A stretch of 34,368 bases of DNA from Parcubacteria group bacterium M10-OD1-1 (GCA_003056145.1 LSNL01000002.1:1-34368); one strand, 5' to 3'. Shown: positions 1,285 to 30,597, numbered from the stretch's first letter. Numbers and translations are program-made. The notes: generated from the sequence alone by a model not told the origin.

Positions 1285-1313
1285 TTGACATAACGCCATT
1301 TATCTGTTAAGAT
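1285..1313 (+). promoter_or_regulatory. sigma70-like promoter for the 1390 gene
   Basis: TTGACA-17bp-TAAGAT with extended -10 TG; leader hairpin about 1330-1357; SD GAGGAGG 5 nt before the ATG. Confidence 0.7.
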
Positions 1314-1389
1314 TTGACTTAGTAAATGAGGTTTCGGATAAAAAGTACCTGAAACCAAAAAGTTTTTTTAAAAAAAAGAGGAGGATATT

Positions 1390-1899
1390 ATGAAAATTTT
1401 AGTCATTGATGACAACACCCGGAATCTGGAGGCTGCTGTAGAGCAGTTTCCAGATGTCGACATCACCACTGTCGACTCAGTAGAGTTGGCAGTGGAATTA
1501 CTAGCAGGGAAAAAATCAGTTTTTTCCCCGCGGGAACCCAAAACCAGGTATGATGTGGTCTTAATTGACCTCAACATGCCAGCTAGTTTTTTGTCTGTTG
1601 GAGTAAGTCCAGCAGGCAAAAAAAAGGAGGGGGAATTATCCCCTGTTGGAATGTTTTTAGTATTCTTGGCTGCCCGAAACGGCGCCAAGAAAATTGTCAT
1701 GCTGACCGATTCAGGTCACCATAATGACCCGTCCAGTGCAATGATTGACCTGGTCTCATCAGAGGATCTCAAGAAAATCAAAACGTTTTCGCTGGATGGA
1801 GCCACAGTTGTTTTAACAAACAACTGTGGCCTGATTATCCGAACCCCTGGCGGGGAGAGGGTAAAAGACTGGAAAACCGCTCTCTCCTTATGTGTTTAG
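1390..1899 (+). CDS. Stand-alone atypical response-regulator receiver (REC) domain protein
   Basis: MKILVIDD start; YDVVLIDLNMP phospho-acceptor motif; insertions and an MLTDSGHH motif; no output domain; GC clearly above flanks (48% in one counted 60-nt line). Confidence 0.75.
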   Translation: MKILVIDDNTRNLEAAVEQFPDVDITTVDSVELAVELLAGKKSVFSPREPKTRYDVVLIDLNMPASFLSVGVSPAGKKKEGELSPVGMFLVFLAARNGAKKIVMLTDSGHHNDPSSAMIDLVSSEDLKKIKTFSLDGATVVLTNNCGLIIRTPGGERVKDWKTALSLCV

Positions 1900-1946
1900 A
1901 GAGTAGTTCATTAAAGTGAGTAAGATTGTTCTCTTACTCACACAGC

Positions 1947-1988
1947 AAACCGCTATACTTAGTTCAAGTATAGCGGTTTTTTATTTTA
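1947..1988 (+). terminator. Intrinsic terminator
   Basis: AAACCGCTATACTT-agttc-AAGTATAGCGGTTT perfect 14-bp stem plus T-rich tract; a second hairpin (GTGAGTAAGA/TCTTACTCAC) lies at 1916-1941. Confidence 0.85.
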
Positions 1989-2070
1989 ATTAACGCAAAA
2001 AAGCCGGTATATTTTTTAGATAATTAAAAATCCCTTTTAGGAAGGGATTAAATGCGTTTGATTGAAAATA

Positions 2071-2113
2071 AAATAAAAAAAATTGCCAGACCGTTTATTG
2101 AAAACAGTCTGGC
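2071..2113 (-). terminator. Intrinsic terminator of dapB
   Basis: Minus strand GCCAGACTGTTT-tcaat-AAACGGTCTGGC followed by a T-tract. Confidence 0.8.
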
Positions 2114-2138
2114 GATGTGTAGCTCGTTAATTTTGGGA

Positions 2139-2951
2139 CTAGAAATCATTCAGTCCCAGGACATCGAACATGGTGTACAAGCCGTTCGGCTTGGCCACGA
2201 TCCAGTCGGCGGCCAAGGTGGCGCCCCGGGCGAAGTTGTCTCGATTGTGAGCCCGGTGAGTAATCTCAATTCGTTCGCCGGCCCCGGCAAAGTAGACCGT
2301 ATGCTCGCCGACGATATCTCCGGCTCTGATGGACTGGATGCCGATCTCCTGGTCCGTCCGCTCGCCGATTATGCCGTGGCGCTCAAACACTCCGACGCTC
2401 GACAGTTTTCGGTTCAGGGCGGTTGCTGCCATTTCACCGAGTTTCAGGGCTGTGCCTGAGGGCGCGTCTTTTTTCATACGGTGATGAGTCTCGACGATCT
2501 CCACGTCATAGGCATCGCCCAGAACGGCCGCTGTCTTGGCGACGAGCTTGAATAGGACATTGACGCCGATGGACATATTGGGTGCCTGGACACAGGTGAA
2601 GTTTTTCTCGGCCAGTTCTGCTAGGATAGCAAGGTCATATGGGGTCAGTCCAGTGGTACCAATAACCATGGCTCGTCCATACTCGCTTGCAATACGGGCA
2701 AATCCTATAGTGGCTGTGTGAAAGGTGAAGTCAATGATGACATCACCCTGATTGATAACCGATTCCAGGCTGGCGGCAATAATCACTCCAGTGGTGCCGA
2801 AACCGGCGTTTTCGCCAACATCCCGTCCTACTGCCGGATTATCCTGATGCTCAAAAGCGGCGGTCAGCTGGAGATTAGGATTCTTCTGCACCATTAAGCT
2901 GATGCGCTTACCCATACGTCCATCAGCACCAGCAATAATTACTCTGGTCAT
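2139..2951 (-). CDS. dapB: 4-hydroxy-tetrahydrodipicolinate reductase
   Basis: GADGRMG nucleotide-binding motif, IDFT, IGTTG, APNMSIG, catalytic ETHHRMKKDAPSGTA, GEHTV, FARGA. Confidence 0.97.
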   Translation of the reverse strand: MTRVIIAGADGRMGKRISLMVQKNPNLQLTAAFEHQDNPAVGRDVGENAGFGTTGVIIAASLESVINQGDVIIDFTFHTATIGFARIASEYGRAMVIGTTGLTPYDLAILAELAEKNFTCVQAPNMSIGVNVLFKLVAKTAAVLGDAYDVEIVETHHRMKKDAPSGTALKLGEMAATALNRKLSSVGVFERHGIIGERTDQEIGIQSIRAGDIVGEHTVYFAGAGERIEITHRAHNRDNFARGATLAADWIVAKPNGLYTMFDVLGLNDF

Positions 2952-3028
2952 TTTTTACCTCCCTTATTGCTCACTATTTGTGAGTCGTTAAATTGGTAAG
3001 TTTTCTGACACCCGTTGCCAGAAAGTTT

Positions 3029-3057
3029 ATACTACTAAGCATTTTGTCTCTTGTCAA
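3029..3057 (-). promoter_or_regulatory. sigma70-like promoter for dapB
   Basis: TTGACA-17bp-TAGTAT on the minus strand; leader hairpin 3002-3024; SD TAAGGGAGGT at 2957-2966. Confidence 0.7.
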
Positions 3058-3446
3058 ATGATTGTACATAATAACCATCCCGAAATAATCCTATTAAGCT
3101 TTATAAAAATAATAAAAAGAAACTTTTATATAGCTACTTTAAGTTTAAAATAAAATTATATAATTTTGGTGGCAATCTATTTTTCTTGGCATTTATTTTT
3201 TAGATAATTTAGCAAAAATTTCCGCTTTGCTACAGTTTTTAATAATTATAACTAGGACTTTCGACGATAGATAGAATTCAGTGCGACTTTTTCCTCGAGG
3301 GAAAATAAGTTGATAGTAGCTGGATAAACGGTTAGAAATTGTGCTATTATATAGTTAATAATAATGATCATTCAAATCTTGGTTAGTCGTTTAATAGAAA
3401 AGAAAAAGTTTTAAAAATATAACTTCAAACCTTAATATATATCAAA

Positions 3447-4241
3447 ATGAAATTAATAAGTTTCAATATTGGGATTAAAATTGATAACTCCAAAGAGATA
3501 GGAAATTTTATCAAATCACAAGATGCAGACATAGTTGCGTTTCAAGAAATTATAAAACATTTTAATGAATCTGTTTTTGAGATATATAAATCCAAAAAAC
3601 ATATCGAAGAAATTATTGGCAAGAAATTACCTTATTCTTTTTTTGGTCCACAATGGATAGCCGATGCAATGAGAAAAAATGGAAAGATGCATCGCGATTT
3701 TAATGGTTTTATAGAACAAGGAAATGAAATAATTTCAAAATTCCCAATTTTAAAGGCTACTAATGAATTTTATTATAAACATTATTCCTTAGAATTAGAA
3801 TGGGCAAATTTTCATACTGAAGATCATCCAAGGTGTGTTCAAATTGTGGAATTGAATGTTAATAATAAAAATTTGCAAATTCTTAATTTACATGGTTTAT
3901 ATTCCAAAGATAAGCAAGACAGTAAGAGAACTCTTAATCAGTGTAAATATATTCTTGAAGCTGCTAAAAGAAAAAATATTCCAACAATTATTGTAGGAGA
4001 TTTTAATTTGTTTCCCGAAACAAAAAGCATTGGAATATTAAATAAAAAATTCAGAAATTTAATTGATGAATACAAAATCAAATCCACAAGACCTACTTTT
4101 GATGACGAAACCGATAAAAGAAATAATGTAGTTGATTACATTTTTGTAAATGATAAAATTAAGGTGAATAATTTTGGAGTTATCATTACCAATATTTCCG
4201 ACCATCTTCCTTTGATTCTAGATTTTGATATATTAGATTAA
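3447..4241 (+). CDS. Endonuclease/exonuclease/phosphatase (EEP) family protein
   Basis: SFNI, DIVAFQE, NLHG, GDFN, DYIF and SDHLP motifs. Confidence 0.92.
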   Translation: MKLISFNIGIKIDNSKEIGNFIKSQDADIVAFQEIIKHFNESVFEIYKSKKHIEEIIGKKLPYSFFGPQWIADAMRKNGKMHRDFNGFIEQGNEIISKFPILKATNEFYYKHYSLELEWANFHTEDHPRCVQIVELNVNNKNLQILNLHGLYSKDKQDSKRTLNQCKYILEAAKRKNIPTIIVGDFNLFPETKSIGILNKKFRNLIDEYKIKSTRPTFDDETDKRNNVVDYIFVNDKIKVNNFGVIITNISDHLPLILDFDILD

Positions 4242-4355
4242 AAAAGTTTGAAGTTATAAAAATAATATTTTTTTACCTTAATTTCAATTTGAGCTAAAGT
4301 TAAGAAAACACCCGCAGACTATTTAATTTGTTATCTCATAATATGAACAAATAAT

Positions 4356-5615
4356 ATGAACAAAAAAATTTTAATAATTGGAATAGCATTTTTCGTAACG
4401 GCTATTATAACTATGGCAGTAGTATTATTTCTTTTTTCTTATCAACCAGCCCAAACACCGCAAACAGAGGATGTTGGTTTAACGCAACAAGGAATTCAGG
4501 AAGTTGTAAGGGCTAATAATCAATTTGCTTTTGATTTATACTCTAAATTAAGTAAATCAAAACAAGGAAATATATTCTATTCGCCCTATAGTCTCTCTGC
4601 TGCTTTGGCAATGACTTATGAAGGGGCTAGGGGTCAGACAGCTAAGGAAATAAAATCTGTTTTTCATTTTCCTAAAAGTAATATTTTAAGATCTAATTTT
4701 GCTACAATTCAAAATGGAATAAATAAAGAAAATAAATTTTATAAATTAAAAACAGGAAATGCTTTATGGGCTCAATATAATTATCGGTTTCTTAAAAATT
4801 ACACAGACAGAGTAAAAAAATACTATGGGGGTAAGGTAGTTAATCTTGATTTTAAACAAGAAACTGAAAAATCAAGACAGACAATTAATTCATTCATTGA
4901 GAAACAAACTAACAATAAGATTAAAAATTTAATCCCAGCTGGAGTTCTTAGTTCAATGACAAAATTAGTTATTACGAATGCAATTTATTTTAAAGGAAGT
5001 TGGAAATGGGAATTTGATAAATCTAAAACTTCTGAACAGGATTTTAAGATAACTCCTACAAAGGTTGTAAAAACTCCTATGATGTATATGAAGCCAGATA
5101 AAGTCAGATTTGATTACGCTAAGATTAAAGGTTTACAAATTTTGGAGTTGCCTTATAAAGGTGAAAAAATTTCTATGTTGATATTATTACCAACGAATAA
5201 TCTTAATTCCATAGAATCTTCTTTAACTGTCAGAAAGCTTAATGAATATAAAGCTCAAATGAAAGAAACAAAATTAGATTCAATTTCGCTCCCTAATTTT
5301 AGTTTTAATAGTAAATATTTTATGAAAGGAATATTGAGTGCTATGGGTATGCCAACTGCTTTTGGTAATGCTGATTTTTCAGGTATGGATGGAACAAAAA
5401 ATTTACAAATTAGTCAAGTTATCCATCAAGCTTTTATAAAAATTAATGAAAAAGGAACAGAAGCCGCAGCTGTAACAGCAGTTACAATGAAAAACTCAAT
5501 GGTTATGTCAAGGAACATTTTCAGAGCAGACCACCCATTTATTTTTATAATTCAGGAAAAAGGAACGGGCAATATTCTGTTTATGGGACGAGTTATAGAC
5601 CCAACTAAACAGTAA
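4356..5615 (+). CDS. Serpin-family serine protease inhibitor with N-terminal membrane anchor/signal
   Basis: NNQFAFDLY, NIFYSPYS, NAIYFKGSW, hinge EKGTEAAAVT, FRADHPFIF..ILFMGRV; hydrophobic residues about 5-28. Confidence 0.96.
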   Translation: MNKKILIIGIAFFVTAIITMAVVLFLFSYQPAQTPQTEDVGLTQQGIQEVVRANNQFAFDLYSKLSKSKQGNIFYSPYSLSAALAMTYEGARGQTAKEIKSVFHFPKSNILRSNFATIQNGINKENKFYKLKTGNALWAQYNYRFLKNYTDRVKKYYGGKVVNLDFKQETEKSRQTINSFIEKQTNNKIKNLIPAGVLSSMTKLVITNAIYFKGSWKWEFDKSKTSEQDFKITPTKVVKTPMMYMKPDKVRFDYAKIKGLQILELPYKGEKISMLILLPTNNLNSIESSLTVRKLNEYKAQMKETKLDSISLPNFSFNSKYFMKGILSAMGMPTAFGNADFSGMDGTKNLQISQVIHQAFIKINEKGTEAAAVTAVTMKNSMVMSRNIFRADHPFIFIIQEKGTGNILFMGRVIDPTKQ

Positions 5616-5793
5616 ATTTTCTGTATCTTTTTTGGTTTTGTTATAAAAAAACTTCTTGCATAGTTAGTCGTATAGGTAATACAAAGAAGAAACAGAAAAA
5701 GTAATTTACAAAAAAGATTGATGAGCTTGAATTTTAGAGAATTTAATCACTAAAAAATTTATAATAATTAGTAATTAAAATAGCGGAGTAATC

Positions 5794-5823
5794 TTTACAA
5801 AAAAAACAATGCGTGCTTATAAT
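5794..5823 (+). promoter_or_regulatory. sigma70-like promoter for the 5909 gene
   Basis: TTTACA-18bp-TATAAT; inverted repeat TTAACACAAA-a-TTTGTGTTAA at 5855-5875; SD AAGGAG. Confidence 0.6.
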
Positions 5824-5908
5824 AAAGAGTGTTGTTTAAAAATTAGATAGAGGCTTAACACAAAATTTGTGTTAAAAAATTAGAACTTTTATAAAGGAGA
5901 ATTTTAAA

Positions 5909-7141
5909 ATGAATTATTTTTATGAACTTTTTTTTTGGTTGGTTGCGGTTTTTCTAATATTATTAATTTTTGTTGTTAACAAATATGGTGATGGATTGTT
6001 TGGATTTTTACAAAGATGTATGTTAGCTATAGTTGATTGGAGGACTATACGGAGGAAAATATTAGGTCAACCTACTCTAGATGTAGTGTTTATTTCCAAT
6101 ATGCGACATTCAGGAGACAAGAAAATTTATCTTGGTAGTTATGTTCCTCCAGAAGGACATTTCAATGGTCCTAGAATAGTTTTTCAGAATATGCTTGGGC
6201 GAACTAGAGCATTAAATGTTTTGGCTTCGGACTTGTATCACAAATCTATGAATCATATGAAGACTACTCGGAGAATAAGTAGAAAATATTATCTAAGCGC
6301 TTGTCAATGGGCTCAAAAAAATGGAGCTCAAGTAATTTTATCAGGAGCTAGCTTAAAAGAACTTTTTGGCAGAGATGTTAAAGAGGCTAAAAAGCAATTT
6401 CCAAAGTTGCTTTTTACTAAAGGAGATAATGGAACAATAATTTTGTTTTGGCGACAATGTCAAAAATCTTTTGAATTAGCAGGTCTTTCTACAAAATCTA
6501 GAATTGGATTTTTATGTCCATATAATACAAACGGGAAAGGAATTATGAATTTTCTTGTTAAAGATGGCTATAGCAATGTGGTCCTTTTTGGTAGTAAACC
6601 TAAGGCAGTAGAAAAAGTTTCTCGAGAAACTGGATTTCCATTTGTTTTTTCTTATGCTGAGATGGGAGAGGTGGACGCTTTAATTTGTTGTTCTCATTCT
6701 CAAGATGTCCAATTGAAAGACAATGATATTCAAAATCTTCGCAAAAAAAATAAAAAATTATTAATTCTTACAGTTGCTCAACCTCCAAATCCTGAATATT
6801 CTATTTATGAAAAATGTCAAAACGATGTAATAGTAATTAGTACCGGAAATGGATATTCCAGCCAGCAGAAATATATTTTGGGTGATGTAGCAGCAGGATT
6901 ATTTGGTTTTGCTAACCAACATTTTAATTTCGGTTGTTATTTGGAGGCTATTTCACTGGCCTATATTTTAAAAAATAAGATTACTAAATATGGCGATCCG
7001 TATCAAATTAATTGGTTTGAAACCAATGAAGAGAATATGTTATTTATAGAAAGAATTTTTAATGACATTGGAATCAGTCCGTTTCCAATGGCTTCTTATT
7101 CTAAAATTAATAATAAAAATTCTCTTTATTTGAGTCAATAA
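5909..7141 (+). CDS. Membrane-anchored acyl-ACP reductase-like (COG5322/WAX2-C-like) NAD(P)-binding-fold protein, divergent
   Basis: Ordered motifs resemble AAR: ILSGAS, FTKGDNGT (TTGN-like), degenerate Rossmann LCPYNTNG, TVAQPPN (DVAxPxN-like), FGCYLEAI (FACFAEAM-like catalytic Cys); N-terminal TM helix. Confidence 0.55.
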   Translation: MNYFYELFFWLVAVFLILLIFVVNKYGDGLFGFLQRCMLAIVDWRTIRRKILGQPTLDVVFISNMRHSGDKKIYLGSYVPPEGHFNGPRIVFQNMLGRTRALNVLASDLYHKSMNHMKTTRRISRKYYLSACQWAQKNGAQVILSGASLKELFGRDVKEAKKQFPKLLFTKGDNGTIILFWRQCQKSFELAGLSTKSRIGFLCPYNTNGKGIMNFLVKDGYSNVVLFGSKPKAVEKVSRETGFPFVFSYAEMGEVDALICCSHSQDVQLKDNDIQNLRKKNKKLLILTVAQPPNPEYSIYEKCQNDVIVISTGNGYSSQQKYILGDVAAGLFGFANQHFNFGCYLEAISLAYILKNKITKYGDPYQINWFETNEENMLFIERIFNDIGISPFPMASYSKINNKNSLYLSQ

Positions 7142-7164
7142 AAATTAAAGTGAATGCTATTCAT

Positions 7165-7207
7165 AGGCTACTTGATCTGAAAGGAGAAAGTAGCTTTTTA
7201 TTTTTTT
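7165..7207 (+). terminator. Probable intrinsic terminator
   Basis: AGGCTACTT...AAGTAGCTT stem followed by a T-rich tract. Confidence 0.6.
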
Positions 7208-7279
7208 AAATATTTAGTATATAATAAAAGTAGATAATTTCTATAAATGGGTTACATATTTAAAGGAAAATTAAAGTAA

Positions 7280-9517: not shown

Positions 9518-9523
9518 TAAATT

Positions 9524-10381
9524 ATGAATATTCATCTTAGCCAATACGCTGGTTTTTGCGACGGTGTTAAGAGAGCTTATGAAATGGTTAATTCATTAGA
9601 AATGGCTAAACTAAAAATGCCAATCTATATTTTAGGATCACTAGTCCATAACCAAGATGTTAATAAAAAAATAATTGCTAAAGGAGTTAAGCCTATCAGT
9701 CGGGAAGATTTTTTTAATTCTAAAATTGGGGAAATAGGAACACTTATTTTAACTGCTCATGGCGTAGGTCCAAGAATATATGCTTGGGCAAAAAAGAACC
9801 AGTTTGATTTAATTGATGCAACTTGTCCAAAAGTAATGAAAGCTCAAAGATTGGCTCAGGTATTTTCTAATCGTCAACAAACTATAGTTTTAGTAGGAGA
9901 TAAAGGACATAAGGAAGTAGAAGGTATTAGAGGTTGGGGCGGTCAAAAAGTAGTGATTATTTCTAACGAAGAAGATTTAAAAAATAGTAACTTTAAATTA
10001 GATGAGAAATTAACAGTTTTAGCTCAAACGACTCAAGATGAAAAATTTTTTAATCAAGTAGTGGAATTTTTACGTCAGAAATATTCTCAAGTAACTGCTT
10101 TAGAAACTATTTGTTATTCTACTCAAGAAAGACAACTAGAGATTAAAAAATTAGCGCAACAAAATGATTTAGTAGTTATAATTGGTTCAAAAACTAGTGC
10201 TAACTCTAATCGATTATTTGAAATTGCTCAAGATATTAATTCAAAAGCTTATTTTATTGAGAATGCTCAAGCAATAAAAAAGGAGTGGTTCAGTGGAGTA
10301 AAAAATGTTGCAATTACCGCTGGCGCTTCTACTCCTGAATGGGTGATTAAAAAAGTTTTAGAAAAAATAAAACAGCTATAA
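9524..10381 (+). CDS. ispH: 4-hydroxy-3-methylbut-2-enyl diphosphate reductase
   Basis: AGFCDGVKRA, VHN, AHG, DATCPKV, HKEV, QTT, TICYSTQERQ, SANS, TAGASTP; three Fe-S cysteines present. Confidence 0.96.
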   Translation: MNIHLSQYAGFCDGVKRAYEMVNSLEMAKLKMPIYILGSLVHNQDVNKKIIAKGVKPISREDFFNSKIGEIGTLILTAHGVGPRIYAWAKKNQFDLIDATCPKVMKAQRLAQVFSNRQQTIVLVGDKGHKEVEGIRGWGGQKVVIISNEEDLKNSNFKLDEKLTVLAQTTQDEKFFNQVVEFLRQKYSQVTALETICYSTQERQLEIKKLAQQNDLVVIIGSKTSANSNRLFEIAQDINSKAYFIENAQAIKKEWFSGVKNVAITAGASTPEWVIKKVLEKIKQL

Positions 10382-10459
10382 TTTATTTAAAAAAAAATTT
10401 GCTTTTTCTTTTTATCTAAGTGTATAATTGATTAGGCTAAATAAAGTTAAGAATATTTT

Positions 10460-11278
10460 ATGACAAAAATGATTATTGTAGAAGATGATTCTATGATTTC
10501 AGAAATCTATCAGAAAAAATTTTCAGAGGCTGGCTATGATGTGGCTATTGCCAATAACGGAGAGCAGGTATTGGGTATGATTAAAAAAGAGCCAGTGGAT
10601 ATAATTCTGCTAGATTTAATGATGCCAAAAATGGATGGTTTTGAAACAACAAAAGCTATCAGAAAAAATCCCGCTAATAAAAATCTCAAAATTTTAATTG
10701 TCAGTAATCTTAGTCAAAAGGAACAACAAGATGAAGTTATGAAATTAGGTGCTGATGGATTTATCGTGAAGGCTAACTATTCTCCGAGTCAATTAGTTAA
10801 AGAAGTCTCTCGTTTGATTGATCAAGAAAAAGAAGAGATTAAAAATGAAGCTAGAATTAATTCGGAAAATCAAACTAGTCAAGAAAATAAAGAGAATGAA
10901 ATTAAAAATCAAAAAAAAGTTTTACTTATTGAAGATGAGGATGTCTTCATTGAAATGTTTGGTAAGAAATTGAAACAGGAAGGTTATTATGTGGAGTCAG
11001 CTAATAGCGGGGAAGTGGGCTTAGAAAAAGCTTTACAGAAAAAATTTGACATTTTTATTTTAGACGTAATGATGCCAGTAATGACTGGAGAAGAAATAAT
11101 TGAGAATTTAAAATTAAATGAAAAAACTAAAAATGTTCCAATTATTATTTTAGCTTCTTCTCTAGATGATGAAATAGAGGAAAAAATTAGAGCTGAGGGA
11201 ATTAAGGATATTTTTATTAAAACTAAAATTATTCCTAGCGAATTAGCTAAAAAGGTAATTGATTTAATAGGAAAATAA
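10460..11278 (+). CDS. Response regulator with two tandem receiver domains and no output domain
   Basis: IVEDD..LLDLMMPKMDG and LIEDE..ILDVMMP, joined by an E/N/K/Q-rich linker. Confidence 0.9.
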   Translation: MTKMIIVEDDSMISEIYQKKFSEAGYDVAIANNGEQVLGMIKKEPVDIILLDLMMPKMDGFETTKAIRKNPANKNLKILIVSNLSQKEQQDEVMKLGADGFIVKANYSPSQLVKEVSRLIDQEKEEIKNEARINSENQTSQENKENEIKNQKKVLLIEDEDVFIEMFGKKLKQEGYYVESANSGEVGLEKALQKKFDIFILDVMMPVMTGEEIIENLKLNEKTKNVPIIILASSLDDEIEEKIRAEGIKDIFIKTKIIPSELAKKVIDLIGK

Positions 11279-11286
11279 TAAATAAT

Positions 11287-17417: not shown

Positions 17418-17549
17418 ATTGAAGAATAGATTCAATAATTTGGTTCATTTTTCTTATAGATGAGTTGATTTTTATTTGGTTGTGTGCTAGGGTACAAACA
17501 AGAAACGGTAGTTTAACAATATTATATTTTTGCAAAAAAAGGAGCTTCT

Positions 17550-17879
17550 ATGTACAAAGATACGCCGAAAGTCGTCGTTCGAGATGAGGATATTATATTA
17601 CAGTGGCAGGAGGAATCCGGAACAAAAAGGGATTTCCCCCTAGTTCTGCCAGCAAAAAAGGATGTGTTTCAGGAAAAAACAACAATTTTGTTTGTAGGTT
17701 TTTTCCTTGATTTTAAGAGAAAGAATATTCACAGGAAGAGACCAACTGATATAAGGTCGTATCAGGAAGATCCTTTTCCTGATACTCCCGTTGTGTATGG
17801 TAAGTTCCAGAGAAGGGTGTTTTTTTTGGAGCTTAGGTATGTCCCAGACATACCAAAGCAGTTTTGTGCAATTCCTTGA
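17550..17879 (+). CDS. Hypothetical protein (109 aa)
   Basis: Own promoter-like TTGATT-17-TAGGGT (17465-17493), SD AAGGAG and downstream terminator; no recognisable family. Confidence 0.65.
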   Translation: MYKDTPKVVVRDEDIILQWQEESGTKRDFPLVLPAKKDVFQEKTTILFVGFFLDFKRKNIHRKRPTDIRSYQEDPFPDTPVVYGKFQRRVFFLELRYVPDIPKQFCAIP

Positions 17880-17904
17880 GGCTTTAAGCTTAGGGAGTTG
17901 CCAG

Positions 17905-17940
17905 AGATCTAATTCTGAATTTAGAGTTAGGTCTTTTTTT
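17905..17940 (+). terminator. Intrinsic terminator
   Basis: AGATCTAATTCT-gaattt-AGAGTTAGGTCT plus T-tract; another hairpin at 17868-17901 overlaps the stop codon. Confidence 0.75.
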
Positions 17941-18070
17941 ATTGGTTGAGTCTTAAATGTTTTCAGGTTATAATAAAAACTAGAGAAATAAGGTATAGAC
18001 CTATTAAGATTTTTTTAAAAGCAATTAGTTTAATAGTCAAAAATTTAAATAAAGTAACTTAATCAAAAAA

Positions 18071-19243
18071 ATGGAAAATATAATAAATGGAAAAGAGGCT
18101 ATCATTGATTATGTGGCAGAATTAGTGAAAAATGGTGCTAATAAAACACGAGTCAAGGATCAATTAATGGCAGTTGGTTGGTCGGAAGATCAAGTAGACT
18201 TAGTTTATAGCAAGGCTTTAATTCAAAATGGAATTCCAGTTCCTAGCAAAATAAAATCTTCAGCTAATATAACAACATCAATTTCTGGTAAAAAGTCATC
18301 TACTGTAGAGGTGGCGCTTAATTTATTTTCTTTTATTCTTTTAGGAATAATTGCCATAGCGACAGGGACACTTTTTTATCAAATTATTAATAAATATTTT
18401 CCAGACACACTTATTACTAATTATTACCAAGGTCAAATTTCAACAGAGACAATTCATTATGCAATTGCAACATTAATTATCGGCTTTCCAATATATTATA
18501 TTTCTATGCGATTATGGTTTCGCGGATTTCAAAAAGATGAAGGTAAAAGGGAGACGAAATTAACAAAATGGTTGACTTATTTAGTATTACTAATTGCTTC
18601 AATTACTGTCGTTGGCGATTTAATAACAGCAGTGTTTACATTCTTACAAGGGGAAATTAGTGTGCGGTTTTTTCTTAAAGCTTTAACTATTCTGGCGATT
18701 GCTGGAGCGATTTTTGGTTTCTATTTTTTAGAACGGAGAAAAATCCAGTATCGTAAACCGATTTCTCAAGGTCTTTTTAAGCGCTTCGGAATAATTGTTT
18801 CAGCTACTATTTTTATTGGAATTATTTTAGGATTTATCGTCGGAGGATCGCCAACAACAGAAAGAAAGAGAGGATTTGATGCTCAAAGAGAAAAAGATCT
18901 TTTTACTATTTCAAATTGTGTAAGTAACTATGCCAGGAGATATAAAAGATTGCCAGAATCTTTGAATGAATTACAAACTAATATGTATTCATATTGCGCT
19001 AATAAAAAAGATCCTGAGACTAAGAAAGTTTATGAGTACCATATAATTACTGCTTCAAAAATCGTTGGAACAAATCGTGAAGGAACCTTTGAACTTTGTG
19101 CAAATTTTAATTTAAAATCGGAAAAAAATAACTCTGAAGGACATAATTATTATTCAGGTGATGGTAAATGGGAAAAACATAATGCTGGGAAAAATTGTGA
19201 TAAAGTAAATGTTATTTTTGAGAAATTTAATAGAAATCAATAG
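18071..19243 (+). CDS. DUF5671-like polytopic membrane protein with C-terminal extracytoplasmic domain
   Basis: About 5 TM helices, KWLTYLVLLIA..GDLI..FLQGE pattern; C-terminal LPESLNEL..DPET..YEY..FELCANF. Confidence 0.7.
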   Translation: MENIINGKEAIIDYVAELVKNGANKTRVKDQLMAVGWSEDQVDLVYSKALIQNGIPVPSKIKSSANITTSISGKKSSTVEVALNLFSFILLGIIAIATGTLFYQIINKYFPDTLITNYYQGQISTETIHYAIATLIIGFPIYYISMRLWFRGFQKDEGKRETKLTKWLTYLVLLIASITVVGDLITAVFTFLQGEISVRFFLKALTILAIAGAIFGFYFLERRKIQYRKPISQGLFKRFGIIVSATIFIGIILGFIVGGSPTTERKRGFDAQREKDLFTISNCVSNYARRYKRLPESLNELQTNMYSYCANKKDPETKKVYEYHIITASKIVGTNREGTFELCANFNLKSEKNNSEGHNYYSGDGKWEKHNAGKNCDKVNVIFEKFNRNQ

Positions 19244-19245
19244 TT

Positions 19246-19869
19246 ATGAATATAAAAAGGCAAATAGTAGTTATTCATGGTGGAGAAGTTTTCAATTCAT
19301 ATGAAGACTATTTAAAATACTTAAAAAATTATCCAGTTGACTTGAATCGGCTTATTAAAAGACCTCGCTGGAAAAATTATTTGCAGGATGATTTAGGCGA
19401 TAGTTGGGAAGTTTTTTCTCCGCAAATGCCGAATTTTCGTAATGCTAAATATTTAGAATGGAAGATTTGGTTTGAAAAAATCCTGCCACATCTTCAAGAC
19501 GGAGTTGTTCTTATTGGACAATCGTTAGGCGGAATTTTTTTGGCAAAGTATCTTTCGGAAAATGATTTTTCGGTAAAGATTTCTGCAACATATTTAGTTG
19601 CTGCTCCGTTTGATAGCAAGGCTAGAGATGACATTGATTATACCCTGGGAGATTTTGAGTTACCAGAATCTTTGGAAAAATTTCAAGCGCAGTCAGAAAA
19701 AATATTTATTTATCATTCAAAAGATGATTCACTCGTGCCTTTTTCTGATTTAGAAAAATATTCTCGGGCGCTTCCTAAAGCAGAAAAGGTTATTTTTTAT
19801 GATCGCGGACATTTTATTCAAGAGCATTTCCCAGAAATTGTAGAAGAAATTCGTAAGTTGGAAAAATAA
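19246..19869 (+). CDS. Alpha/beta hydrolase, RBBP9/YdeN family
   Basis: IHGG, GQSLGG nucleophile elbow, HSKDD..VP, GHF. Confidence 0.9.
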   Translation: MNIKRQIVVIHGGEVFNSYEDYLKYLKNYPVDLNRLIKRPRWKNYLQDDLGDSWEVFSPQMPNFRNAKYLEWKIWFEKILPHLQDGVVLIGQSLGGIFLAKYLSENDFSVKISATYLVAAPFDSKARDDIDYTLGDFELPESLEKFQAQSEKIFIYHSKDDSLVPFSDLEKYSRALPKAEKVIFYDRGHFIQEHFPEIVEEIRKLEK

Positions 19870-19941
19870 TAAGAGAAATCCCGTTTTTATTCTGCTAATT
19901 AATTATTCTTTGTTGAATAGAATAAAAAGTAACTGTGGCTA

Positions 19942-19978
19942 AAGTATATATCAAAGTATATACTTAAGTATATACTTT
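19942..19978. promoter_or_regulatory. Tandem 12-bp palindromic repeats (AAGTATATACTT x2 plus one degenerate copy), probable operator
   Basis: Units at 19942-19953, 19954-19965 and 19966-19977; 19953-19978 is a perfect 26-bp palindrome 14 nt upstream of an AbrB-like gene. Confidence 0.7.
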
Positions 19979-19992
19979 TAATTTTTAAAAAT

Positions 19993-20163
19993 ATGTCAAA
20001 ATTAAAAAATAAAAATACACGTAAATTAATGAGATTGGGCAAAACTAGTTTGGCCGTTACTTTGCCGAAAGAAATGATTAATTCTTTAGGTTGGCGGGAA
20101 AAACAAAAAGTGGTTGCTAAAAAAGTTCGAGGTGGAATTTTGATTAAGGATTGGAAAAAGTAA
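19993..20163 (+). CDS. AbrB/MazE/SpoVT-family small DNA-binding protein (56 aa, absent from the ORF track)
   Basis: Manual translation MSKLKNKNTRKLMRLGKTSLAVTLPKEMINSLGWREKQKVVAKKVRGGILIKDWKK; GxxSxxVTLPK..LGW swapped-hairpin pattern. Confidence 0.85.
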   Translation: MSKLKNKNTRKLMRLGKTSLAVTLPKEMINSLGWREKQKVVAKKVRGGILIKDWKK

Positions 20164-20240
20164 ATTTATAAATCAAAAAAATAAATTTAAGGGTGACTAT
20201 TTATTGAAGAAGATAAAATTAGTAGATAAATTTTAGAAAT

Positions 20241-20279
20241 AAAAAACCGACAGGTTTCGTGACTTCCGAAACCTGCCGG
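20241..20279 (-). terminator. Intrinsic terminator of pyrE-pyrF
   Basis: Plus strand CCGACAGGTTTCG-tgacttc-CGAAACCTGCCGG stem, with a T-tract after it on the minus strand. Confidence 0.8.
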
Positions 20280-20306
20280 CTAGATAAGAACTTAAACACT
20301 TATTTA

Positions 20307-21125
20307 TTATCGGGCAGAAGCTATGTCCGCATAAATCGCGGTAATAACCTCATGCCTAGTTTTCCCTCCTTTAGGCTCTCTTATTGGTCGTCCGATAATA
20401 AAACCTCTAACTCCATTGCGATAAGCCTCGCCTGGAGTCATGGTTCTTTTTTGGTCATCGGGCGGATCCCATGGCAACCTGATTCCAGGAGACCATATTT
20501 CCTTCTCGGGAAATTTTTTGTGAAGAGAAGGAGCTTCACGGGCCGAGGTCAGTAAAATATCCATACCAGCATTCACTGACATCTCGGCAAGCTTCAGCGT
20601 AAACCAACTCATTTGTTGACCTTCAGAATCAAAAATCATCCCTGGCGGAGGACTAATTCCAGCTTGCCGGAGCATTGTAATATTCATACTGGTTAAATAA
20701 TGAACTGCAATAATTTTTGGTGGTTTAATGCCCAGAATTCTTGCCTGTTCATCGCGTCCTTTAACAGCTTTCGCCATCATTTCTTCCATACCGAAAGCCA
20801 TCACATTAAAATATTCCATACCATTAAGTACCTGCTTTGTTATTCCTTTAGCAGCACCATAAATCGTATTTGGAATATCCACCAGCTTGACATCAGCAAA
20901 AGCTTTTTTGCCAAAATCAGTCGCGACCTGTAATGCCGTGGGGAGTGTGACATTGTTTATCAGTTCTAAACCGATTTTTGGCAAGGAAATACTCTCGTAA
21001 ACTTCTTCCATAAGAGAATATCCCGCTCTTAATGTCGGCGTATCAACTGGAAAAATGATCTTTACATCATTTTTTTCGGCAACCTTTTTACATCCCGTTC
21101 CTAGTGCAATCGCTGTCCCTGCCAT
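20307..21125 (-). CDS. pyrF: Orotidine-5'-phosphate decarboxylase
   Basis: KIGLEL, DVKLVDIPNT (DxKxxDIxxT), LTS, PGIR, DDQKR, IIGRPI; SD AAGGAGG. Confidence 0.92.
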   Translation of the reverse strand: MAGTAIALGTGCKKVAEKNDVKIIFPVDTPTLRAGYSLMEEVYESISLPKIGLELINNVTLPTALQVATDFGKKAFADVKLVDIPNTIYGAAKGITKQVLNGMEYFNVMAFGMEEMMAKAVKGRDEQARILGIKPPKIIAVHYLTSMNITMLRQAGISPPPGMIFDSEGQQMSWFTLKLAEMSVNAGMDILLTSAREAPSLHKKFPEKEIWSPGIRLPWDPPDDQKRTMTPGEAYRNGVRGFIIGRPIREPKGGKTRHEVITAIYADIASAR

Positions 21126-21144
21126 TTTTTCTACCTCCTTAGTT

Positions 21145-21882
21145 TTATTTTTGAGAATTTTCTAATAATTCCCAATTCTCATCACTCACTTTAGGTTTTA
21201 TTCTTTTTGAGCCAATTTTACATAATTCACATGGAGGATCCCAAGAATTAATCCAATGTTTGACCAAAGCCAGAACATTAAAAGATCCATATTTTTTAAC
21301 CAGGATATATTCAATAGCTCCTCTATTGAGTATCACAAGCTCTACTGGCAAAATGTCTATTGCCGGGTAACGCCCTTTAATTTCACAGACTGTTTCTTTA
21401 AAGCCAGTCCCAGTAGTAGTAAAATCTTCTACTAGCAATAAGGTGCCATTCGGACTAGCTTGATTCCGTTTTTCCATAACAACAATTCTGCCCTGCTTGT
21501 CTTTGATAAGATTAAGGTTTTTAGCTCCCAAAATTTCTGCAACATCATTTCCAAGTTCAGTCGCTCCCTTAGGTATTCCAGCAACATAATCTGGTCGTTG
21601 CAGTCCAGAATCGTTATAAATACGAACGAGATTCTTAGCTATAATCCGTCGTAAGTTATTGTATTGCAAGACAGTTTTAGAATAGAAAAAACCGTCGCTA
21701 CACATTTTAGACTTAAGTTCAGCGTGTAAACCTACCCTTCCTTCTTCCGCAGCCACCCTATCATATGACCAGAACCCTTTAAACACATTAAAAATATGCA
21801 ACAAATCTTCCTTGGATAAGTTCACATCAAGTTTGTCCAAAGCCAGTAATTCTGATTTACTCATCATAATTATTGATTTCAT
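21145..21882 (-). CDS. pyrE: Orotate phosphoribosyltransferase-like type I PRTase
   Basis: PRPP-binding LLVEDFTTTGTG, HAELKS..SDGF; directly upstream of pyrF; SD AAGGAG. Confidence 0.78.
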   Translation of the reverse strand: MKSIIMMSKSELLALDKLDVNLSKEDLLHIFNVFKGFWSYDRVAAEEGRVGLHAELKSKMCSDGFFYSKTVLQYNNLRRIIAKNLVRIYNDSGLQRPDYVAGIPKGATELGNDVAEILGAKNLNLIKDKQGRIVVMEKRNQASPNGTLLLVEDFTTTGTGFKETVCEIKGRYPAIDILPVELVILNRGAIEYILVKKYGSFNVLALVKHWINSWDPPCELCKIGSKRIKPKVSDENWELLENSQK

Positions 21883-21936
21883 TCTTTGCTCCTTAGTTTT
21901 ATTTGAGAATCTTTAAATTGAAAATGAACTATTAGT

Positions 21937-21965
21937 AGTCTACTGATTTAATTGAAATTAGTCAA
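21937..21965 (-). promoter_or_regulatory. sigma70-like promoter for pyrE-pyrF
   Basis: TTGACT-17bp-TAGACT on the minus strand. Confidence 0.65.
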
Positions 21966-22222
21966 TAAAATAGCAGATAACTTCTTAAATAATTAAATGT
22001 ATTACCTTGCTTATTTTTATTCTAGAAAGTAGGAGGTTAATAGCTAGAAATCAAATTGTAAATAAATAGTTCTTAAAAAAAATAGATTAAAGAAATAAAT
22101 TTTTTAAAAAGTAAGAATCAATTGATAGTTTGAAATCTTTAGTATAAAATAAAAGAGTGATTGGCAATTTAAGTTACTTAGAACTGTAAAATACAACTTA
22201 AGATAAATAGAAATAATTTTAA

Positions 22223-22795
22223 ATGCTCAACCAGTCAATAAAAATTAAAACGCTTGGATTAATTGGTCTTATTTTTCTTATTGGAATAGTAATTGGTTTT
22301 CAGCTCGGAAAAAATAATTTAGCAGTTAATAATTATCATCAAAATCAACTAACTGAAAAAGTAGTTAAAGATAAAATTTCTCAAGTAGCTTATATTGGAA
22401 AATATAAAGTTGCGAGAGTTATTGATGGTGATACAATTGAGATTGAAGGTGGAGAGCGAGTGAGGTATATTGGCATGGATACTCCAGAGACAGTCAAACC
22501 GCACACAGCTATTCAATGTTTTGGACCAGAAGCTAGCCAGGAAAATAAAAAATTAGTCGCTGGAAAAATAGTTCGTTTAGAAAAAGATGTAACTAACCGT
22601 GATAAATACGGTCGTTTATTGCGTTATGTCTGGTTAGGTAATAATTTAGTAGATTTAACTTTAGTACAATTAGGTTTTGCTCGTGCTACGCCTTATCCAC
22701 CTAATATTCATTATAAAACTAAATTTTATCAAGCTGAAAATTTAGCACGAAAACAAAAAATTGGTTTGTGGAAATCGTGTGTAAAAAATAATTAA
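22223..22795 (+). CDS. Thermonuclease (staphylococcal nuclease-like) with N-terminal membrane anchor
   Basis: VIDGDTI, RYIGMDTPE, DKYGRLLRYV, GLW. Confidence 0.93.
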   Translation: MLNQSIKIKTLGLIGLIFLIGIVIGFQLGKNNLAVNNYHQNQLTEKVVKDKISQVAYIGKYKVARVIDGDTIEIEGGERVRYIGMDTPETVKPHTAIQCFGPEASQENKKLVAGKIVRLEKDVTNRDKYGRLLRYVWLGNNLVDLTLVQLGFARATPYPPNIHYKTKFYQAENLARKQKIGLWKSCVKNN

Positions 22796-22904
22796 AACTA
22801 AATATAAATGTAGTAGATTAAGAAAGATAAATAGGGGTATAATAAAAAAACAGATATTTAATAAAATAATTCAAACAAATCAATCTAGATTATAAGAAAA
22901 AAAT

Positions 22905-28013: not shown

Positions 28014-28037
28014 AATAATTTAATAAATATATTTTTT

Positions 28038-30110
28038 ATGAAATTAGAAAAACTTTTTAATCCTCAATCAATTGCGATTGTCGGTGCTTCAGCCGAACAA
28101 GGAAAAGTGGGAAATGCGATTACAAAAAATATCTTAAATTTAGGTTATGCTGGGGAAGTATTTCTAGTAAATCCGAAACACGATGAAGTCTTGGAAAAAA
28201 AATGTTACCATAGTCTTTCTGATATAGAATCAGAGGTTGATTTAGCCGTAGTTGCTATTCCAGCTAAATTTGTTTTGGGCGAAATTGAAAAAAATGCAGA
28301 TAGGATAAAAAATTATGTAATTATTTCCGCAGGTTTTTCTGAAACTGGAAAAGAAGGAAAGGAATTTGAGGAAAAGCTGTTAACATTAGCGCAGAAAAAA
28401 AATCTTAATATTTTAGGTCCGAATTGTTTGGGTTTCATTGTCCCTGCGAATAAATTAAATAACTCTTTTGCAGGCGGAATGCCTCATACTGGAAATATAT
28501 CTTTTATTACTCAGTCGGGAGCGTTAGCGGTGGCAATTATGGACATTGCTAAAAAAGAGGGGATTGCTTTCTCTAATATAATTTCAGTTGGTAACAAAAT
28601 GCAAATTGGAGAATCAGAACTTTTAGAGTTTATGGAGAATGATGATAAAACGGAATTTATTTTTATGTATTTAGAAGGTATTAAAGATGGTTTAAAATTT
28701 GAAAGAATAGCCAAGAGAGTGGCTAGAAAAAAACCAGTAATTATTCTTAAAGCTGGACGAAATGAGAGAACTCAAAAGGCTATTTCTTCGCATACCGGGG
28801 CTTTAGCTGGGAATGATGAAATTATTTCTGCTGTTTTTAACAATACGGGGATTGTTAGAGTCGCTAGCTTAGAAGAACTTTTTGATTTATTTAAGATAGT
28901 CAAGATGAAAAAGAAAATCACAAATGAAAACACAGTGGTTCTTACTAACGCTGGAGGTGTGGGTGTTTTGAGTGCTGATGCGTTTGGTGGAAAAAATATC
29001 AAGCTAGCAGAATTGAAAGATGAGATAAAAGAAAAAATAAAAGAAAATCTACCCAAGGAAGCTTCAGTGGAAAATCCGATAGATTTATTGGGAGACGCTC
29101 AAGAGGATAGATATGAAAAAACGTTGGAAATTATTTCTAATCTCAAAAATATTGGTTCAGTTATCTGCATTTTAACGCCACAAGATCAGACTCCTGTGGA
29201 AAAAATTGCTGACAAACTTATTGAATTTAAAAACAAGACGGGAAAGCTTGTGGTAGCGGTGTTTTTGGGTGGAGAGCGAGTGGAAAGCGCGATTGCTAAG
29301 ATGAGAGAGAATAATATTAGTAATTTTCAGTTCCCAGAAAAAGCTATTTTTGCTATGGATAAATATTTTAAATGGAATTTGTATGCTTCTTCAATAAATA
29401 AAAATTTCGAATATAAAATTAATGAAAGACGAAAAAAAGAAGCGGAGGCTATAATTGAAAAAGCTAAAAAAGAGAAAAGAAAAGCGCTCTATTTTTCTGA
29501 GGCAAGGGAGATTATGGAAATGTACGGAGTAAATACCGTGCCAATCATCAATATTTACCCAGGTAAAAAAGTTAATAGTAGTTTGACTCCTTTCAGATAC
29601 CCAGTCGTTTTGAAAGTGGATGACGATAAAGTTTTACACAAGACTGATCGACAAGGAGTAGTTTTGAATATTAAGGATGAAAAACAATTGGAAAAATCAA
29701 TTTCGCAGATGCAAAGAGATTTTCCTAATAGTAGATTAATTGTTGAATCTATGGTTTCTAAGGGAATGGAACTTATTATTGGAATTAAACGAGATGAGGT
29801 TTTTGGTCCTGTCATTATATATGGTCTGGGTGGAATTTATACGGAATTTTTAAAACTAGTAGATTATTTAATTCTTCCACTGGAGGCTTCCCAAATTCAA
29901 GAGTCTTTATTGAAAGGAAAATTAGGATTTTTGTTTAATGGAGCACGCGGACAAAATCCATATGATGTAAAAGATCTTTCTGAATTATTCTTCGGTGTCA
30001 GTTCCTTGGCACTAGAAGTTTCTCAGATAAGAGAATTTGATATCAATCCAGTGATTACTTACAATAACGGGAAAAAATCTCTGGCTGTGGATGTGAAAAT
30101 CATTCTTTGA
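28038..30110 (+). CDS. ADP-forming acetate--CoA ligase (fused alpha/beta, AcdAB-type)
   Basis: SIAIVGAS, LGPNCLG, QSGAL, phospho-His SHTGALA, NPIDLLGD; C-terminal ATP-grasp HKTD..GV, DINP. Confidence 0.93.
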   Translation: MKLEKLFNPQSIAIVGASAEQGKVGNAITKNILNLGYAGEVFLVNPKHDEVLEKKCYHSLSDIESEVDLAVVAIPAKFVLGEIEKNADRIKNYVIISAGFSETGKEGKEFEEKLLTLAQKKNLNILGPNCLGFIVPANKLNNSFAGGMPHTGNISFITQSGALAVAIMDIAKKEGIAFSNIISVGNKMQIGESELLEFMENDDKTEFIFMYLEGIKDGLKFERIAKRVARKKPVIILKAGRNERTQKAISSHTGALAGNDEIISAVFNNTGIVRVASLEELFDLFKIVKMKKKITNENTVVLTNAGGVGVLSADAFGGKNIKLAELKDEIKEKIKENLPKEASVENPIDLLGDAQEDRYEKTLEIISNLKNIGSVICILTPQDQTPVEKIADKLIEFKNKTGKLVVAVFLGGERVESAIAKMRENNISNFQFPEKAIFAMDKYFKWNLYASSINKNFEYKINERRKKEAEAIIEKAKKEKRKALYFSEAREIMEMYGVNTVPIINIYPGKKVNSSLTPFRYPVVLKVDDDKVLHKTDRQGVVLNIKDEKQLEKSISQMQRDFPNSRLIVESMVSKGMELIIGIKRDEVFGPVIIYGLGGIYTEFLKLVDYLILPLEASQIQESLLKGKLGFLFNGARGQNPYDVKDLSELFFGVSSLALEVSQIREFDINPVITYNNGKKSLAVDVKIIL

Positions 30111-30125
30111 TAAGAACAGAAAAAC

Positions 30126-30154
30126 TTGACTGAATGGGTTTGTTGTTATAAACT
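30126..30154 (+). promoter_or_regulatory. sigma70-like promoter for the 30258 gene
   Basis: TTGACT-17bp-TAAACT; SD AGAGGAG upstream of ATG 30258. Confidence 0.55.
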
Positions 30155-30257
30155 AAAAAGAATGCAATCTTGAACTTTTTTAGTTGATTTTGCTTCAAAA
30201 ATGTTCTTGGAAAAATATTTGTGAAGGGGGAAGAGGCAAAAAAGAGGAGATAGTCCT

Positions 30258-30449
30258 ATGAAAAAAATCATACAAAAGCTAAAGATACCATTGGATGTAG
30301 TTTCCTTCGGTTTTATTTTAGCCGGAGGATTTTGTTCGGACTGGTTTGAATGGAAAATTGCTTGTAGTTTTTCCTTTATTGGTTTAGTTTTAATTATTAT
30401 TGAAGTACGAACTAATCGCCGTCCTTCCCCTTATGCGAACAGGAAATAA
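30258..30449 (+). CDS. Small membrane protein (63 aa, two hydrophobic segments)
   Basis: Good SD, own promoter-like site, basic N- and C-termini, 14-bp inverted repeat over the stop codon. Confidence 0.65.
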   Translation: MKKIIQKLKIPLDVVSFGFILAGGFCSDWFEWKIACSFSFIGLVLIIIEVRTNRRPSPYANRK

Positions 30450-30597
30450 TATTTCCTGTTCGCCCCCCCCTCAAAGATATTTTCTTGCAATTTATTTTTT
30501 AAAAAAACTAATTTAGAATATAGTTTCTAACTTTTTTTGGATAGAATAGTGGTTGAATAAGTGACAATCTGTGTGTGGTTTGATTGAGTGTGATAAT

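Follow-up and report, generated by a model that had tools for sequence, protein, structure and literature searches.

We analysed a window of 34,368 nucleotides (nt), the first 34,368 bases of contig C3 in the genome of Parcubacteria group bacterium M10-OD1-1 (G000), in which a few genes led by a strong Shine-Dalgarno (SD) sequence stand among core genes that lack one. The genome, of 865,987 bases in seven contigs, has a G+C content (GC) of 0.30-0.31, is 97% complete and ends its 16S rRNA in GGATCACCTCCTTTCT, which contains the canonical anti-SD; genomes of the same phylum measure 0.5-1.5 Mb. These properties suggest a small-genome Patescibacteria-type lineage, which fits the DUF5671 gene in the window. 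When the 40 nt upstream of the 28 open reading frames (ORFs) of at least 80 amino acids (aa) were read, a clear SD 5-9 nt before the ATG was found for six of them: a gene for a receiver-like (REC-like) protein, dapB, the genes starting at 5909 and 17550, pyrE and pyrF. The other 22 ORFs had no clear SD, the exceptions being a chance-level AAGGA before the histidine kinase and AGGA before aspS, which bears out the statement of the first-pass annotation, made from the sequence alone, that the core genes start after A/T-rich leaders.

The units to which these genes belong are listed in Table 1 together with one built on a putative short ORF at 30258, which is the weakest of the set because one of its hairpins lies inside the ORF and the one at its end lacks a T run. 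Five terminator-like hairpins of at least ten pairs were found in the window, all of them at SD-led units. Promoter-like sites scored 10/12 at dapB, 11/12 at 5909 and 9/12 at both pyrE and 30258; that of the REC-like gene was good, and none was listed for 17550. The rise in GC above the flanks that had been attributed to most units was found in five of the six genes (core genes, about 0.26-0.34), the exceptions being 5909, which is native-like, and the ORF at 30258. The REC-like protein matches the Pfam receiver domain below the cut-off (19.7 vs 30.2 bits), the 17550 protein has no Pfam match and the 5909 protein has seven relatives only, at 36-62% identity. For pyrF, matches were found in 21 of 200 other genomes of the phylum with a best identity of 40%, and a search of metagenome contigs for its donor returned one partial match only (55% over 47 residues). 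All six genes are absent from G004, a complete genome of the same family (ten contigs, 968,888 bases, GC 0.462), presence being defined as a match over at least half the length and scored for G000 genes of at least 100 aa.

Table 1. Coordinates of the SD-led units and of associated features, counted from the first base of the window (CDS, coding sequence).
Feature	Position	Strand	GC	Signals and remarks
REC-like unit	1285..1979	+		promoter-like TTGACA-17-TAAGAT 1285-1313; SD GAGGAGG 1378-1384
REC-like CDS	1390-1899	+	0.459	169 aa; terminator hairpin 1947-1979
dapB unit	2085..3057	-		promoter-like TTGACA-17-TAGTAT 3057-3029; structured leader 3028-2952
dapB CDS	2139-2951	-	0.545	SD GGGAGGT 2957-2963; terminator 2113-2085
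5909 unit	5794..7141	+		promoter-like TTTACA-18-TATAAT 5794-5823; SD AAGGAG 5894-5899
5909 CDS	5909-7141	+	0.311	without strong terminator; within strain-variable segment 5883-7917
17550 unit	17539..17936	+		SD AAGGAG 17539-17544; terminator 17903-17936
17550 CDS	17550-17879	+	0.397	109 aa
pyrE-pyrF operon	20245..21965	-		weak promoter-like site 21965-21937 (9/12)
pyrE CDS	21145-21882	-	0.359	SD AAGGAG 21889-21894
pyrF CDS	20307-21125	-	0.426	SD AAGGAGGT 21133-21140; GC-rich terminator 20281-20245
30258 unit	30126..30463	+		promoter-like site (9/12); SD AGAGGAG 30243-30249; hairpin 30303-30329 within ORF; stop-codon hairpin without T run
30258 putative ORF	30258-30449	+	0.339	63 aa
Inserted block between mraY and pgk	17418..22904			5.5 kb
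128-nt direct repeat	860-987 and 1118-1245			98% identical; copies the TrmB 5' end and promoter region

Genes were called across the genome with a purpose-written finder. Its 3-periodic Markov model had long ORFs as the training set, the gaps were afterwards filled with long ORFs and the first ATG was taken as the start; this gave 783 ORFs, 781 of them with usable upstream sequence. With an SD-led gene defined as one having an SD match of at least 5 nt at a spacing of 3-13 nt, 57 of the 781 were SD-led and 698 had no SD-core match at all. Matches of at least 6 nt preceded 41 of the 781 starts vs 63 of 3623 internal ATGs, and 4-nt matches were rarer at starts (21/781) than at internal ATGs (325/3623). 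Even when alternative starts within 150 nt were allowed, at most 52 of the 724 non-SD genes gained a match of at least 5 nt, and at most 11 one of at least 6 nt. Scoring against the organism's own 16S rRNA 3' end, which the first-pass annotation had proposed, thus confirmed that the SD minority is real and stands above the internal-ATG background. Native leaders contain about 13% G+C between positions -20 and -1, with peaks of A at -11, -6, -5 and -3. The same scarcity was found in G004, which has the same anti-SD and in which 67 of 949 ORFs are SD-led, the share being highest in the top GC bin (12/48), and in the loci of other relatives, with two SD-led genes among 95 ORFs. G000 (GC 0.30) is strongly A/T-shifted in its family (relatives' loci have a GC of 0.33-0.49, with a mean of 0.416), and since G004 (GC 0.46) is equally SD-poor, the poverty in SDs is a trait of the family and not a by-product of low GC. 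As an observation apart, the match to the 3' part of the 16S gene of G004 (C9:111808-112884) is split into two segments separated by about 865 bases, a sign that this rRNA gene may carry an insertion.

Two classes of genes exist in this genome, and the SD-led one differs in composition, is mostly accessory and carries more terminators. The median gene GC of SD-led genes is 0.362 vs 0.307 for the rest (p=2e-11), their GC at third codon positions (GC3) is 0.268 vs 0.196, and the native codon model missed 23 of the 57 vs 44 of the 698 SD-less genes. The SD-led share climbs with GC, from 26/693 below 0.35 through 9/49 (0.35-0.38) and 10/20 (0.38-0.42) to 12/19 at 0.42 or above, and several of the SD-less high-GC ORFs in those bins are rRNA artefacts. 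Strong intrinsic terminators (a stem of at least 9 bp with a T run, scored where the next gene is at least 40 nt away) follow 17 of 43 SD-led vs 28 of 397 SD-less genes (p=4.6e-8). Twelve of 51 SD-led genes are present in G004 vs 497 of 650 SD-less ones (p=3.9e-14), and the figure falls to two of 27 for SD-led genes with a GC of at least 0.36. Accessory status by itself brings no SD, since 153 SD-less genes, with a native GC of 0.301, are absent from G004 as well; among the G004-absent genes terminators follow 13/27 SD-led vs 5/77 SD-less ones. That the SD-led genes would form a distinct class, as had been proposed from the window alone, is corroborated by GC, terminators and patchy presence among relatives, all of which differ significantly.

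The layout that the units had been said to share was upheld in part, with the SD, often a terminator and usually a raised GC on the one side, and promoters and leader hairpins, which do not discriminate, on the other. Near-consensus promoters were rejected as a feature of the class, their frequency being equal in the two groups (sites of at least 10/12 at 12 of 35 SD-led vs 80 of 291 SD-less genes, p=0.43), and promoter-like sites across the window were no commoner than in shuffles (103 vs 85.4±9.6 and 48 vs 68.4±8.3). Leader hairpins were rejected too, most z values being like those of native leaders: of the six SD-led leaders in the window only that of dapB beats shuffles (z=-4.13), the other five having z values of -0.63, -1.16, +1.84, +1.74 and -1.39, and six native leaders ranging from -0.69 to +1.20.

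We consider it probable that the majority of SD-led units reached this genome by horizontal transfer from donors that use SDs, and the best reading of the two-class pattern is that it was mainly caused by horizontal acquisition and not by a cassette machine. The clearest case is dapB, whose best homologues belong to Desulfobulbales, the top one with 88% aa and 87% nt identity, and which was not found in 39 of 40 relatives, the sole match being 29% identical; judged by its homologues, dapB is of Desulfobulbales type. The remaining units would have come from further donors of this SD-using kind. Moreover, at least four operons of higher GC carry the SD of a downstream gene within the CDS that precedes it, and since these SDs sit within foreign coding sequence they came in with the donor DNA. 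Elsewhere in G000 the SD-led imports comprise leuB, leuD, leuC, a UDP-glucose dehydrogenase, a hemerythrin, a PLP decarboxylase of the Orn/DAP/Arg family and a class I/II aminotransferase. The earlier description of the cargo as isolated biosynthetic steps agrees with the presence of dapB, the aminotransferase and the PLP decarboxylase, and with our failure to find dapA and dapF in the 97%-complete assembly, where gaps at contig ends could hide them. High-GC, mostly SD-led genes lie at contig ends (C1 42650-44155, C2 657-3126 and 145826-147046, C3 1390-2951, C7 168723-171022), and the assembly apparently breaks where islands are imported or vary between strains. A single lysine-related island may have comprised both dapB, at the start of C3, and the PLP decarboxylase and aminotransferase found at the start of C2.

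Several observations weigh against an origin of these genes by acquisition from SD-using donors. The native GC of 5909 (0.311) does not mark it as foreign, and the REC-like and 17550 proteins remained orphans in a search of 5.8 billion proteins. A common Desulfobulbales donor was considered and rejected, since searches of five Desulfobulbales genomes found neither the REC-like protein nor two further high-GC proteins, which is a weak negative. Conserved native SD-led genes often have terminators too (4/10), so that the pairing of SD and terminator is not purely a foreign mark, and our gene calls contain a few spurious ORFs (for instance inside the 16S gene) and miss ORFs of foreign composition below 80 aa. 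Another point concerns the boundaries of dapB: the DNA match to the nearest Desulfobulbales locus covers 2141-2954 only, that is the CDS and 3 nt, and its 150-nt flanks, compared by local alignment with six Desulfobulbales loci in 12 comparisons, gave z values of -1.23 to +1.43. In a control in which the Desulfobulbales loci were compared among themselves (CDS identity 0.75-0.95), flanks reached z values above 8 in 8 of 10 cases. The CDS of dapB still has a GC3 of 0.61, vs 0.76 in the nearest locus, and its flanks have 0.34-0.36 G+C. Because the flanks fail to align, the promoter-like site, leader and terminator of dapB are not a simple carry-over from Desulfobulbales. An exact 25-mer scan of metagenome contigs for the dapB junction elsewhere gave nothing. 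Full alignment of promoter, leader and terminator to the donor genome, which the first-pass annotation had named as the sign of plain carry-over, was accordingly not seen for dapB, the sole unit with an identified donor; in another sense carry-over is borne out by the SDs inside operons, which are donor-derived. New flanks exactly at the ends of the dapB CDS are left unexplained by the import account.

These boundaries bring in the possibility of local compensation, in which SDs, and perhaps terminators, were kept or evolved after arrival because GC-rich foreign starts fold more and need an SD; the class would in that case be a product of selection in the recipient and not of donor signals. 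The minimum free energy of the region from -30 to +30 round the start has a median of -4.6 in SD-led vs -3.2 in SD-less genes (p=4e-4) and of -5.3 in SD-led genes with a GC of at least 0.36; such stronger folding fits a need for an SD where the native A-rich solution is missing. The flanks of dapB are not donor-like, and in place of the AAGGGAGGT of the window the nearest donor-like locus has GGAG only, with a longer spacer. At the same time, the SDs inside operons lie within foreign coding sequence, a 9-nt match is unlikely to have arisen anew in A/T-rich DNA, and other Desulfobulbales dapB genes carry SDs of the AAGGAG type, so that the SD of dapB alone could be donor-derived and carry-over of a short piece is possible. 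We regard local compensation as quite unlikely to be the source of the pattern.

A boundary at the very ends of a CDS, with new flanks that are A/T-rich and functional-looking, is also what an unrecognised cassette-capture or gene-precise reformatting process, integron-like or RNA-mediated, might leave behind if it set a CDS between a promoter-SD module and a hairpin. Integron gene cassettes are compact, hold one ORF with a 3' hairpin and have their boundaries near the ORF, and the units described here have a similar shape, with one ORF, a hairpin 3' of it and limits that lie near the ORF. However, when the flanks of all 57 units (200 nt upstream and 150 nt downstream) were compared all against all with blastn, only the SD itself and chance 14-20-mers were shared, the sole downstream overlap being that of the convergent REC-like and dapB units. 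Unlike integron cassettes, the units show no common attC-like motif in the 150-nt downstream regions (by blastn, no attC model being run), no integrase or attI and no array, and they have promoter-like sites of their own; no repeated recombination-site motif was seen, and the hairpins consist of a perfect stem with a T run behind it. Two tyrosine recombinases (PF00589) were found in the genome, both Xer-like and on contigs C2 and C7, none on the contig of the window, and no serine recombinase (PF00239) was found in the genome. Searches for known RNA elements in Rfam gave one sub-threshold match and none in the leaders, the island formed by the REC-like gene and dapB has no DNA match in phage or plasmid collections, and no viral relatives of the REC-like, 17550, 5909 and pyrE proteins were found. 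With no shared flank sequence and no recombinase nearby, nothing points to a capture machine; the cassette-capture idea of the first-pass annotation did not hold up, the units being dispersed and not arrayed, and we judge it very improbable.

Phage morons offer another comparison. They carry their own promoter-like site and their own terminator and have an odd composition. A moron has been described as an extra gene that forms an independent transcription unit, spreads horizontally and lies between conserved neighbours (PMC3594210). The units described here resemble morons as additional genes, probably of horizontal origin, set between conserved neighbours. The REC-like and dapB units have promoter-like and terminator-like sites in their sequence and may be independent transcription units, promoter-like sites being no commoner at SD-led than at native genes. 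Unlike morons, the units are chromosomal, have housekeeping neighbours and no phage genes around them, and for the four proteins used as queries no relatives were found on viral contigs.

Foreign and native DNA are physically linked in this genome. The stretch 700-3700 was found in six runs of three studies, and contigs of four runs from the three studies were aligned to 860-20859. Single contigs with 0-1 differences lead from the interior of dapB into the native genes for an EEP-family protein and a serpin in four runs (X2 2326-5882, X4 2722-5441, X5 2722-5882 and X6 2533-5882), mraY, the 17550 unit and the DUF5671 gene are spanned in the same way, and read depth in the island is similar to that of its neighbours. 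The linkage of dapB is therefore not a chimera, and the notion that high-GC pieces of other organisms were joined to this genome by the assembly or by contamination of the bin is extremely improbable, even though contig ends are rich in high-GC genes (at the end of C1 and of C7, at the start of C3 and at both ends of C2) and extra dapB-like contigs are present in the same samples. None of the contig records listed spans the left junction of the island; a loose contig end at 1118, which equals window positions 830-859, is explained by the 128-nt repeat. As a separate observation, up to five contigs pile up at dapB 2325-2436, with a summed depth (80-114 in X2) above that of the neighbours, and other dapB sequences at least 90% alike, possibly from the donor lineage, are present in the same samples. 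Depth is lower over 5883-7917, a segment that contains 5909 together with the N-terminal membrane part of the histidine kinase. An alternative joint from 5882 to 7918 occurs in all four runs with the two depths summing to that of the flanks, so that the 5909 unit is strain-variable; in some contigs other sequence follows positions 5885 and 5891.

Further along the window, a block holding the 17550 unit, the DUF5671 gene, a hydrolase, a small ORF, pyrF, pyrE and an SNase gene separates mraY from pgk. Of 27 relatives, 20 have pgk immediately after dacA-mraY, four have one ORF in between and three have something else after dacA-mraY (two loci cut by contig ends were excluded), and by this comparison of synteny the mraY-pgk junction holds an insertion. 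The block mixes the SD-led 17550 and pyrE-pyrF with SD-less genes. Other features of the window are noted here in their own right. The 128-nt repeat abuts the left edge of the REC/dapB island and may be a real duplication, a strain variant or an effect of assembly. The serpin at 4356-5615 is full-length (Pfam E=5e-117), has a signal-like N-terminus and is absent from G004, as is its neighbour, an EEP-family nuclease/phosphatase. The Rfam trpB-motif matches 1939-2034 on the minus strand, in the terminator region between the REC-like gene and dapB, below threshold (31.9 vs 59 bits, E=0.89), probably by chance.

Taken as horizontal acquisition, the pattern would arise as follows. The recipient's own mRNAs start after A-rich, G-poor leaders without an SD, in a cell whose 16S rRNA keeps the canonical anti-SD. 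Imports would remain recognisable by a GC above the native level, codon usage of a foreign type and a donor-style SD, in many cases with a GC-rich intrinsic terminator as well, and would settle as monocistronic units or short operons at breaks of conserved synteny. The shared layout would then be a convergence, donor-type signals travelling with each gene, and not the footprint of one machine. A selective filter probably favours imports that are able to start their own translation and end their own transcription, the SDs and terminators presumably being functional in this organism. Horizontally acquired islets of atypical composition are covered by the concept of amelioration. The units described here share with such islets their raised GC and foreign codon usage, lie at synteny breaks, are absent from relatives and, in one case, have an identified donor lineage. 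They differ from the usual case in that the recipient is SD-less, so that imports stand out by their translation signal too, in that there are no mobility genes or tRNA sites, and in that homology stops at the CDS ends of dapB. They also compare with the 'atypical genes' of GeneMarkS-2 (PMC6028130).

The SD-led set also has a native part. The gene rpsU, for ribosomal protein bS21 (C7:68625-68879, minus strand), has an extended SD with 11 consecutive bases complementary to the 16S tail, and a strong SD at a spacing of 5-8 nt precedes rpsU in all 30 genomes from the family and order (G000 and 29 relatives, L125-L153), its core counted by eye as GGAGG in 25 and GGGGG in five. The tyrosine near position 53 of bS21 (own numbering) is kept in 30/30, and the C-terminal part of the G000 protein is very basic, with 16 K/R vs 4 D/E in 42 residues as read by eye. 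Ranking starts by their pairing with the 16S tail gave two tiers. The strongest, at -16 kcal/mol or below, holds eight genes, seven of them conserved in G004 and some SD-led there too: a T4SS-pilin-like protein, rpsU, Hsp20, a mechanosensitive-channel-like protein, HU, a pilin and two unknowns, with identities from Pfam for four of the eight (loci besides rpsU: C4:15823, C6:1190, C7:113036, C4:25395, C7:11518, C7:135233 and C2:31945). The second tier, from -12 to -14.5 kcal/mol, comprises about 17 genes, mostly foreign. Among the native genes with at least 70 nt upstream (n=317), the SD window showed less weak pairing than a mock window placed 40 nt upstream of it (51 vs 81 at -3 kcal/mol or below, 26 vs 37 at -5 or below) and more strong pairing (7 vs 1 at -10 or below).

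In Flavobacteriales, weak SD-like pairing is reported to be depleted at starts, with rpsU typically the only strong-SD gene (PMC9976891), and in Bacteroidia the anti-SD is described as hidden by bS21, bS18 and bS6, the bS21 tail of Bacteroidetes being less basic (PMC7797042). Such SD-blind translation is accompanied by autoregulation of rpsU, and its pocket is marked by Tyr54 of bS21, by Phe50, Asn56 and Gln58 of bS18 and by a C-terminal helix on bS6. Some Parcubacteria are reported to have lost the anti-SD motif, and some groups of the candidate phyla radiation often to be without bS21 (PMC9297842); our literature search found no paper on SD use or on the rpsU SD in Patescibacteria. One could hypothesise a specialised regime in which ribosomes mostly ignore SDs and SD-led mRNAs are read mainly by a subpopulation, for instance one lacking bS21, so that the native extended-SD genes and the imported SD-led genes make up one conditionally translated set. 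The different translation regime suggested in the first-pass annotation would find a lead in the order-wide extended SD of rpsU. The system is like SD-blind translation in Bacteroidia in retaining the canonical anti-SD with hardly any SD-led genes, here as in G004 (67/949, with the same anti-SD, at a GC of 0.46), in the extended SD of rpsU, in the depletion of weak SD-like motifs at starts and in the A-rich leaders. The strong rpsU SD and the bS21 tyrosine, both in 30/30 genomes, the enrichment of strong pairing at native starts next to that depletion, as reported for Flavobacteriales (PMC9976891), and the conservation of seven of the eight strongest-tier genes in G004 speak for such a regime. 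At the same time, the organism belongs to another phylum, its bS21 tail is strongly basic where that of Bacteroidetes is described as less so (PMC7797042), several native genes and dozens of imports carry strong SDs where Flavobacteriales typically have a single such gene, and the raised GC of the SD-led genes and their absence from relatives would be left unexplained. We regard this regime as unlikely to account for the two classes. A bolder reading, which we hold to be doubtful, is that an order of Patescibacteria independently reached Bacteroidia-like translation, that the anti-SD would be kept for an extended-SD regulon headed by rpsU and including Hsp20, HU and pilins, and that imports would fall under that minority regime; its boldest addition is that imports such as dapB would be re-flanked at their CDS ends by an undescribed process.

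If most SD-led units are, as we think probable, acquired from SD-using donors, then in lineages that have dropped the SD the motif itself would mark recent imports, which would aid the annotation of uncultured symbionts, and would show which metabolic steps were borrowed, here in lysine, leucine and pyrimidine metabolism. The donor lineage of dapB (Desulfobulbales) may be a clue to an organism that lives as a partner or neighbour, and the fact that homology ends exactly with the CDS of this gene raises the question of how foreign genes gain working flanks in reduced genomes. If the bolder reading were true, the minority SD regime would give foreign genes a built-in channel of expression that is conditional or quarantined. 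Furthermore, the extended SD of rpsU outside Bacteroidia suggests that SD-blind translation with feedback through bS21 may have evolved more than once.

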